Positions 57,001-63,000 of a stretch of DNA of 64,000 bases are shown piece after piece. The DNA comes from Oligoflexales bacterium. GTDB taxonomy: Bacteria; Bdellovibrionota_B; Oligoflexia; Oligoflexales; Bog-1112. Every line of letters starts with the position of its first letter. Within the stretch, counting starts at the first letter, position 1. The position numbers were made by a program. Location: positions 53,014 through 117,013 of the forward strand of contig JBGCDR010000040.1 of NCBI GenBank assembly GCA_045105515.1, given 5' to 3'.

Positions 57001-60000
57001 ATAAGCATACGTAAGGTTGTGCTCACCGGTGACAGCTTTTTAAACATACCATAACAACCAAAGGTAAATGTAATAGACAATGATATCCATGGAATTTCTC
57101 CTTGAAGATAAACTAATAGTAACACTCCAACACTTGCTATAAGCACAGCTAACCATTGTTTCGAACTAAGCTTTTCTTTGAAAACTATAGTCCCCAAGAA
57201 GACCGAAAAAATTGGATTTATATAATAACCTAGACTGCTTTCAACAACATGACCTGAATTTACTGCCTTGATATTAATGAACCAATTTAAGCTTATACAA
57301 AGTGTTCCTGCCACTATCGCTAGCCAATATTTTTTTTTAATTGAAAAGAAGTCAACAATTTTTTTTGATGGATTTCTGACTATAAAAAGAACTGCTACCA
57401 GGATTAGTGACCATAAACATCGATGACACAAAATTTCTTTGGAATCTAATCCAGCTAAAAGCCTCCAGTATAAAGGTAGGAGCCCCCAAACAAAATAAGA
57501 GAAAATACCAGTCGTTAATCCGAGTTTATCACGGTTCAATTTTTGCTCCTAAAATATATTCATATCATTGATATCTAATCTAGCTTTCAAACGAAATAAA
57601 TCAACAAATGAATTAAAATCTAACACTCAATTCTTCAAAGGAAAAATTCGTGTTTCATCTAGGAAATCATGAACAAAAATCTTGAAATAGGTTTGACTTT
57701 GAACAATTGTCATGCGAATAGTTGGATACCTTAAAATTTGGAGATTGAATAGTCATCAAAGAATATTAAGAAGCAGTAAATATTGGAGAAACAACCATGC
57801 TGTCAAATATAAAGCCAAAAATCAAGATCTATACTAAAGACAACATTCATATGCTTCCCCAATTTACAAAGGTATCTAAAGAAAAACAATTTGAACTTAA
57901 GGTAGTTGCTTCCATCCTTCCGTTCAGAGTAAATAATTACGTAACTGATAAATTAATCGATTGGGATAATCTTGAGTCAGATCCCCTATATCATCTAAAT
58001 TTTATGCAAAAAAAAATGTTGAGTGAACCTCATTTCAAAACTATTGCCCAATTACTAAGTACTGATCAAGGTCAATCACCAGCCTTTTATAAGGCAGTAA
58101 AAAAAATCCGATTTGATTTAAATCCACACCCTTCTGAACAATTAACTTCTAATGTTCCCACCCATAATGATAAGCTCGTTCCAGGAATTCAGCATAAATA
58201 TACTCAAACTGTATTAGTATTCCCTAAGCAGGGTCAAACTTGCCATAGCTACTGTACATTTTGTTTTCGCTGGGCACAGTTTTCAGACCTTAATGACTTA
58301 AAATTTGCAACGGACCAACATCGAAAATTTCTCGAGTACATCAAAGATCACAAAGAACTTACTGATGTACTAATTACAGGTGGTGATCCGATGATCATGA
58401 ATGCAAGAATTCTCAAAACCTATATAGAACCCTTACTTGGACGAGAATACTCCCATATTCAAACTATCAGAATTGGAAGTAAGACCCTAAGCTATTGGCC
58501 GTACCGATATTTATCTGACCGCGACTCAGCTGAAATTCTTAATCTATTCGAGAAAGTAGTCGCGGCAAACAAAACCTTAGCCTTTATGGCACATATTAAT
58601 CACCATCGCGAAATAGAAACTGATGCTGCAAAACTAGCAATTAAAGCTATTCAGGGCACAGGAGCAATCATCCGTAGTCAATCGCCAATTTTAAAGCATA
58701 TTAACGACAAGCATCAAATTTGGGAAAAAAATTGGAACATTCAAGTAAGAATAGGCATAGTCCCTTACTACATGTTTGTGGAGAGAGACACTGGACCGCA
58801 AAACTATTTTGCAATCCCATTGGTTAAAGCATTAGATGTCTATAAAAATGCAATTAAGAATGTCTCTGGATTGGCTAGAACAGCACGAGGACCTTCAATG
58901 TCCGCTAGTCCAGGTAAGGTAAGCATCGAAGATGTTCAGTTTCTTAAAGGTCAAAAAGTCTTTGTATTAAAATTTTTACAAGCTAGAAATCCTGAATGGG
59001 TTGGAAAGCCATTTTATGCAAAATTTTCCGCTGAAGCAAAATGGTTGACAGACTTAGAGCCTGCCTTTGGTGAAAATAAATTTTTCTTCGAAAGGGACAT
59101 TAGAGTTATCAACTCAGCCTCTAGCAACAGCTAAATTGAAGCTTAATAAAAAAGAGTGTAGAGATTCAAACTAAATATTTAAGTATTATAATAAATATCG
59201 TTCTTCCAATCATTCATGTTCTTTAGTCTTTCCTCCATACTATCATACAGCAAGATGACTTTAACGATGGCCTTAACATATAGTTATTATGACTAATTAA
59301 TTAATTTTTCTAAGAAATTACCATACGGAATTCCTTTATCCAATTTATAAGGAACCGATAGACGAAGTGGATAATGTTGTATCCGCAAAGTAGTGAGTAG
59401 GTTGGTCGATTATGACATTAAAAGACTCAGAAGACAATCAGGTCATCAGTAACAAGCGATTTCTGATCTGGTACTTCTGTATCCTATTCACCATGTTTTC
59501 ATTTCATTTTAGTGATCTAGGTGATTTTGCCGAGCTAGACCTCGCCCACAGAATGCAATTTAATATTAGAGAGCGTTTCGATTTAGCACCAAAATTACAC
59601 CCAAATTTAAAAATCTATGCCCTCGATGACTACGCAGTGAGAAAAATATCCAGAGACGAAATAAGATTAACAAATTGGTCCTCCATACTAACAACAATTT
59701 CTAAATCAAATCCAAAACTGATTATTATTGATAAAGAATTTGGGGTCATCAATGAAGATGAAGATATTGATACCTTTCGCAATGCACTTGTCGGCTCTGT
59801 TCCTATTTTTATTGGGTGTCATACAAAAGCACGGGAAAATAAACAATTGAAAAAATTAAGCCATGATCGCTATTTAAACTTAGAACGTCCCGAATTTAAT
59901 CTTAACCGTTCTTTACTGAACAAAGATGCTAATGCGGATTGGTTGTCAATCTTAGATCACGATACATTTGGGCCTAAAAAAGTACTTGAACCATTCTTTC

Positions 60001-63000
60001 ATGGAATTGGCCATATAAACTATGAGTATATAGGTAGGGTGGAACCCTTTAGGCGAGTAGACGAAAATGTGGTAATTCCACACCTTACTTTGCTTACTGC
60101 AGATAGTTTAAAAATCTCTGACGAAGAAGTAGTGATTGACAAAGTCCCAGTACGTCTAGATAATAAAAATCTCATCGCCGTAAACTTTCCTACAAAAAAT
60201 GAATTATATACAAATACTAAAAGCATATATCCAGTTTATAAAAGAGCAACCCAAAATAGAAGCCTCAAAAAAATTAAAGAAGGTGATATCGTAATCATAC
60301 TTCCTCTGTTTTTTACTGGAAATACTGATATGGGAAATACCCCAATAGGAAGGATTCCGCGGGGATTTATAATTACATCCTTAGTGAATAGTATTATGAC
60401 TAAAGAATGGCTTATTCCTCTAAACATTGCAAAGCCTCTGATTCCACTAGGTTCGCTACTAGGTGCTATGTGTGGGATGCTTCTAAGTCCAGTGTGGTTT
60501 TGGGTAGTAATGTTGAGCTTACTCTCAGGATTTTTTTTCGGAAGCATCGCACTATTTTGTTTTTTTGGAATCATTGTTCCTTGGCTTACTTATATACTTT
60601 CGTTTCTAGTAGGAGGGATCGTATTTTTCTCTGTAAAGATGTCAAGACAAGCTCGTATATCACAAGCTTATGAAATCGCACTATCTGGTTTAGTTTCTCA
60701 CAACTCGCTTAAGGAACTTATTAAAAATCCAGCAGCGATAAGTCGTGAAGCTAGTGAACAGCTACTGACGATTATGTTCATCGATATGGTGTCTTTTTCG
60801 AGCATGGCTGAGAATGCGCATCCAAGAATAGTTTTTTCACGCTTAAAAGAAACTATGGGATATTTCTCAGAAACAGTGCATAAGTTCGGAGGAGTTGTAG
60901 ATAAAACAATGGGTGACGGAATGCTTTGCTTTTTTGGTTATAACTATATTGGCGGAAGTACTACCAAAAATCATGCTGATCAAGCAATAGCATGTGCAAA
61001 AGAGATTCAATTAGAGCATTCGAGGAGAAGCATCGAAAAATTCAATAAAGGTGAACCTTATGTACCGATAAGAATAGGGATAAATTCTGCAAAAGTTTAT
61101 ATAGGGGATTTAGGAAATAATGAGCGCATTGACTTCACCCTAATAGGTAGTGGAGTCAATTTTGCACAGCGTTTAGAATCCGCATGCGATCCATTTTCAA
61201 TACTATTATCTGAAGATTCACTACAATTTGCAAATGACTTTCATCTAGGTCTACCAGGCATACGTAGGCGAAAAATAAAAATAAAACATCACCAAAAACT
61301 GTTTAATGTTATCGAATTTCTTCCATTCATAGATCATTACGATATATTAGAAAAATCAAAAGAAGCCTTTTATGGACATGAGCACTACAAGGGAAGAGCT
61401 CCAAGATGGCCCGTGGATACAGATAAAAACATCATGATTGGTACGTCTGTTGGGGAATGTCGCTTAATCAATTTTTCTCGTTCAGGTTATGCTCTCTTAT
61501 TTCCAAACGATCTAAAACCAGGAACCAATTTTGACTTTAACATTCATCAAAGCGATAAATTTACTGAAGAGTTCATTAAAATCAATGACATACCGACTGT
61601 TAGCTGCGAGGTTCGATGGAGCAATCCAGAAGATGGGAAATTTATGCATGGAGTTAGTATCATAAGTCTTAATGAACAACAAAAAGAATTTCTCTACGAA
61701 TGTCTTAGAGATTCCCTCACTAAAATCATATAAATTTTCGAGTGTGCAATATATTCCTACTTATCTAACTTTTTATAGTATTACTTTGAAGCACTCCATT
61801 TTCACGTTAAAATATAGATGATGACAAAATGTTCGATAGCTTCTTGAAGGAAGATGTATGCCTACCAAAATCGATGTTGTCCTAGAAAAGTGTGATGATC
61901 TAGTAAATTTTTATGACAATCTACCGAAATTTAAAAGTTTGTTCGGGTACATTGCTTTCAAAGATATGCATTTATCGCTAAAAGAATTTACAGAAAAGAG
62001 TTCCCCTGAAGTCCTTGAAAATGACCTTCTTCAAGAATACATCTTTAATCTCTATAATAATTACATCAGAAAAGCTTTTGGTAAAAGCCATGACCTTTTA
62101 AGCGGCGATCAAAAAGAGTAATTTTTTTTTAGCCAACCACCTTTTCAAGTAATTTATTTCCCTTACCATCGATTAAGTTGCGAATTATAAATTGTTTAAC
62201 ATCAGATATCTTGACTATATCACTCTTGGAAAGGTATATACCTATAGGGTGATCTTGACCTTTTGCTAAGTAACTTCCTAAGTACTCGAACTTTTTTTGA
62301 TACCTTGTTGAAATACTATTATAAAAATTTTTAGAGACAATAATATTCGATCCTGGCAGGCCATGTACCATTTTTTCAAGTCTATGTAGTAAATCTACTT
62401 CTGAAGAATCTGTTTCATACCATTTATGGTTGAGAATAAGATCATCCTTAATTACAGTCACCTTATTAATTGTCTGGTTAACATTTTCACCACTATGTAA
62501 TGCTATTCCACACTCAAAACTTAATTCATTAACTTCAGATAAAGATCTAAGGCTCATTCGAAATTCATTTGCAGCACTCATTGCTTGATTGCAGGCTTCA
62601 CTACTGTTTTTTAATAAACCAAAATGAGCGAAGGCATAATCACTTGCATGGCACTCAATAAAACCTCCATATTTCATAACACATTGGGCAAACAATGCAG
62701 CAACAACACTTTTAAGAGGCTTGCCATCAACTTTTACATCTCTTATTTTAGAACTTGAAATAATATCATAAGTAATCCCAACAAAGCAGCCAGTTTCAGG
62801 TATTTCTATATTATTTACAACCATATGGTATATCATCGGTGGCAACCAGGCCTTTAATTCATTCAAATATTTTTCTAATTTTTTCTGAGTTTCTTTCAAT
62901 TCCTGATTGTTTTTTTCCAATTGCAAATAATACTTATCCCTTTCATTTTTAGCTTTATAAAGCTCAATTGCTCCTCCAACTGTATTCTCAATGATATTTT

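Follow-up and report, generated by a model that had tools for sequence, protein, structure and literature searches.

A probable CHASE2-type receptor adenylate cyclase with a C-terminal PilZ domain and an altered c-di-GMP motif in an Oligoflexales bacterium

The window analysed here, a stretch of 64,000 nucleotides from the genome of an Oligoflexales bacterium, contains a gene, designated P0001, whose features are collected in Table 1. Its reading frame is intact, with zero internal stops across 773 aa. The gene is solitary: its neighbours are a short ORF and a gene of the KamA family of radical SAM proteins, a histidine kinase/response regulator pair is convergent to it, and no conserved gene neighbourhood pointing to a pathway was found. 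Pfam matches to Guanylate_cyc (residues 450-610) and PilZ (residues 662-765) both lie above the curated cut-off. An AlphaFold2 model, computed from a 40-sequence alignment (mean pLDDT 86.8), begins with a helix at the N-terminus and a sensor of mixed alpha/beta structure; three more helices at 340-424 precede the cyclase, after which a linker helix (643-654) runs to a barrel that ends in a helix. The closest named relative is an Oligoflexales MAG protein with 85% identity. Pfam, the model and homology together confirm the initial annotation of P0001 as a membrane sensor joined to a class III cyclase and a C-terminal PilZ domain, and the sequence indicates that the protein is most likely a membrane receptor adenylate cyclase with a C-terminal PilZ domain.

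Table 1. Position of P0001 and its features in the window.
Feature	Position	Strand	Evidence
P0001 gene, 773-aa CHASE2-TM-adenylate cyclase-PilZ protein	59412..61733	+	ORF, Pfam, AlphaFold2 model
Probable N-terminal membrane helix, residues 14-33	59451..59510	+	Model helix and hydrophobic sequence
Periplasmic CHASE2-type sensor, about residues 56-335	59577..60416	+	Homology to relatives/paralogue
Three membrane helices, residues 340-410, chain back to cytoplasm	60429..60641	+	Model and hydropathy
Probable cyclase transducer element, residues 420-440	60669..60731	+	Alignment with 6FHT
Class III cyclase core, residues 445-640	60744..61331	+	Catalytic residues in alignment
Linker helix between cyclase and PilZ, residues 643-654	61338..61373	+	Model, alignment
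Altered first c-di-GMP motif, K660-G-R-A-P-R665	61389..61406	+	Family alignment; structural register
PilZ domain, residues 662-772	61395..61727	+	Pfam, model, structural matches
(D/N)xSxxG motif, N687-F-S-R-S-G692, intact	61470-61487	+	Sequence

Pfam made no CHASE2 (PF05226) call on P0001 itself; the domain was called in 6/6 scanned relatives and also on three paralogues from the same genome, whose outputs are SpoIIE, a histidine kinase and an Hpt-HATPase. The front end of P0001 matches the CHASE2-SpoIIE paralogue at 29% over 400 aa (E 1e-54). By homology, P0001 has a CHASE2 domain followed by membrane helices ahead of the cyclase. The model contains helices at 340-357, 360-385 and 391-424, and a hydropathy scan flagged 343-410. 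For the cyclase to lie inside the cell, an odd number of helices is needed after a periplasmic sensor. The modelled protein probably has four membrane helices, the first of which we infer, since residues 14-33 fall below the 1.6 hydropathy threshold and were missed by the scan. In Cya2 the transducer element (CTE) is described as located before the cyclase core (PMC5995499), and the stretch preceding that core in 6FHT aligns with P0001 from residue 433 on by sequence and from residue 420 on by structure.

The cyclase domain has the class III fold and keeps all six catalytic residues, with D458 and D502 as metal-binding Asp, N583 and R587 (Asn-x3-Arg) as the transition-state pair, and K498 and D574/T576 as adenine-selecting residues. 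K498 aligns with the Lys of Cya2 E488K (6FHT) and of CyaB, whereas the guanylate cyclase Cya2 (2W01) has the GTP-type Glu at this specificity site. Residue 498 is K in 93, R in 22 and E in 0 of 115 family rows; in a 148-row set Arg occupies it in 34/148, and Glu is outside the four commonest residues. The D-[K/R]-D-[D/E]-N-R catalytic set is complete in P0001 and in 217 of 240 family members. Residues 625-627 of P0001 read KHH where other cyclases have KGK, a feature that, together with a separate long-branch cyclase clade (support 99-100), sets its family apart from the CHASE2 receptor cyclases. The initial annotation had given the nucleotide specificity as unknown; K498 and D574 form an adenine pattern that makes cGMP unlikely, and the complete, ATP-type catalytic set argues that the product of P0001 is most likely cAMP.

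As modelled, the tail shows a true PilZ fold, with a six-stranded barrel and a C-terminal helix, and both VIA-align and Foldseek rank PilZ proteins at the top. In addition to the second c-di-GMP motif it keeps R735-W736 and H746-G747. RxxxR is not present: Gly661 replaces the first Arg, the second Arg (R665) is kept, and residue 654, commonly Arg in the family, is Tyr. According to the starts of the structural ranges, residue 661 corresponds to BcsA R580, YcgR R114, Alg44 R17 and PlzD R136, a register that assumes a gap-free start of each range; a family profile gave the same register in a weak match to VCA0042/PlzD (E 0.04-0.1). BcsA R580 is reported to stack on c-di-GMP and, without c-di-GMP, to latch the gating loop closed (PMC8892547), and replacement of the Alg44 motif arginines by Ala is reported to abolish alginate (PMC4436075). 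With R665, NxSxxG, R735, K660 and R662 present in P0001, c-di-GMP binding may persist.

The shift of the arginine motif by one residue, mentioned in the initial annotation, is real. P0001 falls in a clade of eight, all with G/Y-R-x-P-R (support 0.99 in a FastTree tree of the cyclase part alone), and the parsimony root state on the cyclase-part tree is RxxxR, so the loss of the first Arg is derived and inherited and not an error. The Gly/Tyr of the clade sits at the position of BcsA R580 / YcgR R114. One clade member, P0170, lacks K498, D502 and R587, and thus three catalytic residues. The change of the first Arg to Gly and of Arg654 to Tyr suggests that c-di-GMP gating of P0001 is probably weakened or lost.

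Motif statistics were compiled for 240 non-redundant family members (<80% identity), among which R661 is present in 182, R665 in 231, D/N687 in 225, S689 in 228 and G692 in 235. RxxxR and (D/N)xSxxG are both intact in 171 of these members, in 110/148 and 65/115 rows of the two row sets, and in L036 (Oligoflexus tunisiensis) and L062 (Bdellovibrio sp. HCB337); the family as a whole carries the two canonical motifs. R661 occupies its position in 117/148 rows, while at linker positions 655-660 and 662-664 no residue exceeds 60. The first Arg is labile, being absent in 58/240 members with 24 changes on the tree. By raw counts R654 is present in 130/182 members with R661 compared to 9/58 without it; this apparent co-loss disappeared on tree correction (7 independent pairs, p 1). 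The lability of the first Arg could mean that it is dispensable, which counts against our main reading below. The intact motifs in 171/240 members make it likely, as judged from the alignments, that c-di-GMP controls cAMP synthesis in the family. The candidate relay from c-di-GMP to a cyclic mononucleotide proposed in the initial annotation thus has good sequence support at the family level, where it is also in line with the register of solved PilZ/c-di-GMP complexes, but the case for it is weakened in P0001, which has lost the first Arg.

The family is widespread in one lineage. With a cyclase-PilZ query, 87/116 genomes of the phylum Bdellovibrionota_B matched at E 1e-20 and 84 at 1e-30, with up to 17 per genome (matches, not copy numbers); ordinary cyclases reach at best 8e-21 with a comparable query. 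Matches were found in 3/13 other genomes of the taxonomic family to which the P0001 genome belongs and in 8/151 genomes of the family of Bdellovibrio sp. HCB337, which itself has one strong match; Oligoflexus tunisiensis has four. In a 50%-cluster search, all 150 among the matches listed had E <1e-190. Bdellovibrionota is the label of 57 of 79 loci, which represent the top 80 among 453 stretches that were confirmed. Four of five otherwise-labelled genomes gave an RpoB match, and these RpoB sequences are closer to O. tunisiensis (73-77%) than to alpha-/gammaproteobacterial controls (55-59%), which argues that the labels of these genomes mislead.

Cyclase-PilZ fusions as such exist outside Bdellovibrionota. 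In the Atlas, Guanylate_cyc and PilZ occur together in 7 of the 30 nearest clusters, and the best three of these (313-363 aa) include Ca. Rokuibacteriota, taxa being taken from few records. A separate GAF-cyclase-PilZ group, two members of which are labelled Ca. Sericytochromatia, has both c-di-GMP motifs in 20/20 proteins listed. Its cyclases form a separate clade, and a single origin with the P0001 family was not rejected (AU p 0.068). The near confinement to Bdellovibrionota/Oligoflexia claimed earlier is therefore borne out for the CHASE2 family and does not extend to cyclase-PilZ fusions in general.

The host genome, which is 91% complete, has matches to 12 GGDEF, 1 EAL, 14 PilZ, 5 Guanylate_cyc and 7 cNMP-binding domains. 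No match to the Crp-type HTH (HTH_Crp_2) was found in it, and its seven cNMP-binding proteins yielded neither a Pfam output domain nor a cNMP-EAL fusion.

Known CHASE2 receptor cyclases include Synechocystis Cya2 (PDB 2W01; PMC5995499) and CyaD1, CyaD2 and CyaK of Sinorhizobium meliloti (PMC13001267); the descriptions given there mention no PilZ tail, in contrast to P0001. CyaB of P. aeruginosa (3R5G) is described as activated via the Pil-Chp system, with no fused second-messenger receptor in that account (PMC5767216), whereas P0001 has PilZ. The Spirulina adenylate cyclase CyaC (1WC0/1WC1) is also among the nearest known systems. On the receptor side, BcsA (4P00), YcgR, PP4397, PlzD/VCA0042 and Alg44 share PilZ fold and motif register with P0001. 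As in BcsA, the PilZ domain of P0001 follows the membrane enzyme on its C-terminal side and the linker holds the Arg motif, but P0001 has Gly in place of R580, and its output is a second-messenger synthase rather than a polysaccharide synthase or motor brake. Bd1971 of Bdellovibrio bacteriovorus, described as a cAMP-sensing c-di-GMP phosphodiesterase (PMC6717892), likewise links cAMP and c-di-GMP in one protein within the same broad lineage; it differs in having other domains and in taking cAMP in and acting on c-di-GMP as output. The reference list of the same paper includes a Leptospira diguanylate cyclase that depends on cAMP. Bd0081, which that paper annotates as an adenylate cyclase, is listed elsewhere as a putative c-di-GMP effector (PMC11323537).

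In the mechanism that we propose, a periplasmic signal would act on the CHASE2 domain and travel via the three membrane helices and the transducer element to the cyclase, which would work as a homodimer and produce cAMP. In typical members c-di-GMP would lodge between the PilZ barrel and the linker with RxxxR, and because the linker lies one helix past the cyclase core, binding would reposition it and alter cyclase activity. Our guess, by analogy with BcsA, is that the effect would be a release of inhibition. P0001 itself would answer mainly to its sensor, with c-di-GMP control weakened or lost. To the joint reading of a c-di-GMP-gated family and a weakened or ungated P0001 we assign a probability of roughly 0.45.

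That P0001 is instead fully gated like its family, with R662, assisted by K660, replacing the missing first Arg, seems rather unlikely. R662 is found in 8/8 members of the clade, where K660 is fixed or nearly fixed, and P0001 retains R665, N687, S689, G692, R735 and H746. By raw counts Arg662 is also enriched in members without R661 (20/58 compared to 14/182 with it), but the enrichment lost significance once relatedness on the tree was corrected for (p 1). Moreover, the published account of BcsA assigns both stacking and switching to the first Arg, and the catalytic losses of P0170 hint at relaxed selection. The PilZ domain of the family might also be a structural or protein-docking module, or bind c-di-GMP without catalytic effect, for example in localisation. 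Non-binding PilZ scaffolds have been described (PMC10333796), RxxxR is missing in about 1/4 of members, and the persistence of the second motif and R665 where R661 is lost fits structural roles. We nonetheless regard this explanation as improbable, considering that both motifs are kept in most members despite a PilZ identity to P0001 of roughly 20-30%, and in every listed protein of the GAF-cyclase-PilZ group.

Two further explanations appear very improbable. One holds that the PilZ domain recognises a different cyclic dinucleotide, such as 3',3'-cGAMP, which B. bacteriovorus is reported to produce (PMC9140294), and that the shifted motif reflects changed specificity; the ligand-bound fold neighbours of the P0001 PilZ domain, however, are c-di-GMP complexes. 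The other, to which we give just as little credence, is that P0001 lacks activity, or produces cGMP with or without cAMP. Structurally it lies nearest to the guanylate cyclase Cya2, level with adenylate cyclases, and the KHH triplet and the frequent Arg at 498 could be taken in the same direction, yet the adenine pattern, the lack of Glu498 in 115 rows and the presence of the six catalytic residues speak against it.

Both domains are well known, and P0001 is a weaker example of its family. In a literature search by title and abstract start, with most subscription papers outside its range, we found no paper on a cyclase-PilZ fusion; the architecture is present in databases, where automatic annotation pairs both domains, yet appears unstudied. 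Returning to c-di-GMP control of the family, we consider the odds slightly better than even that it represents widespread adenylate cyclases directly gated by c-di-GMP, each a one-protein relay from c-di-GMP to cAMP that also combines an outside signal with the messenger of cell lifestyle. This would include an expansion in Oligoflexia, as the number of matches per genome suggests, in which repeated edits of RxxxR, such as that in P0001, yield gated, retuned and ungated receptor versions. Canonical members occur in cultured strains (Oligoflexus tunisiensis Shr3 and Bdellovibrio sp. HCB337), with P0001 as a natural motif variant for comparison, and a working cyclase-PilZ fragment would let a standard cAMP/CRP reporter read out the level of c-di-GMP. 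The lineage in which a c-di-GMP-switched cyclase would sit has many c-di-GMP receptors. The single-protein links described in the sources cited above run from cAMP to c-di-GMP; such a cyclase would provide the reverse link and, if the reading is true, could together with Bd1971-type enzymes join the two messengers in both directions as a closed loop.

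In the KHH loop of the 773-aa CHASE2-cyclase-PilZ protein (located in the table with the other features), the three positions are occupied by K, H and H in 146, 138 and 88, respectively, of 148 family rows. A conserved E-x-D-P follows in the CHASE2-cyclase-PilZ family, immediately before the linker between cyclase and PilZ, and the region is a candidate contact site for that linker. A second family, of GAF-cyclase-PilZ proteins (P0244 and P0302-P0320), has canonical PilZ motifs and KGK; the cyclase of one, P0319, is decayed, and P0320, listed with them, is a cyclase-PilZ protein of 357 aa. 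Within the clade of the 773-aa protein, the relative P0170 has lost K498, D502 and R587 and kept sensor and PilZ; judged from its sequence, it is probably a pseudocyclase.

Downstream of the main gene, and preceded by a histidine kinase gene, lies a response regulator whose output domain, a divergent class III cyclase, was not called by Pfam. This domain retains the metal Asp pair (D185 and D227) and R313, and carries Cys at the specificity Lys position and Asp at the Asn position, which leaves the nature of any product in doubt. The type occurs in 9 of 116 genomes of the phylum, with three matches in the organism's own. Since that genome encodes seven cNMP-binding proteins and no HTH_Crp_2 match was found across the whole of it, its cAMP receptors seem to be other than ordinary CRP.

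Locations of features in the window, the own genome (G000) and family loci (L)
Feature	Location	Strand	Remark
KHH loop, res 625-627	window 61284-61292	+	stands where KGK is usual
Response regulator, divergent class III cyclase output	window 62129-63319	-	Atlas structure match, TM 0.72-0.78
KamA-family radical SAM protein	window 57797-59134	+	under every specific cut-off
Pyridine-nucleotide oxidoreductase/AIRS fusion	window 43731-46028	+	
Rieske oxygenase	window 46152-48531	+	adjoins P450
NlpC/P60 protein	window 49769-51316	+	secreted
928-aa membrane protein, divergent cyclase domain	G000:C191:6284-9067		
Cyclase match	G000:C337:796-1110		stop inside
Recurring neighbour	L041:8297-8908		20 loci
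Recurring neighbour	L031:8259-9590		11 loci
Recurring neighbour	L034:4509-5633		14 loci
CHASE2-front-end paralogues, own genome	L083:2159-4255, L084:1533-3947, L085:1826-4606		

Elsewhere in the window, we take the oxidoreductase/AIRS fusion to be SelD-like. None of the three recurring neighbours of family genes matched Pfam; the L041 gene, directly downstream of the family gene, looks like a lipoprotein. RpoB of the MAGs holding L054 and L070 is 73-77% identical to that of Oligoflexus, versus 55% to a gammaproteobacterium, so that by sequence their Polynucleobacter labels look wrong.

Three own-genome paralogues carry the CHASE2-membrane front end of the main protein on SpoIIE, histidine kinase and Hpt-HATPase outputs. 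The front end is a sensor module specific to the lineage and shuffled among outputs.
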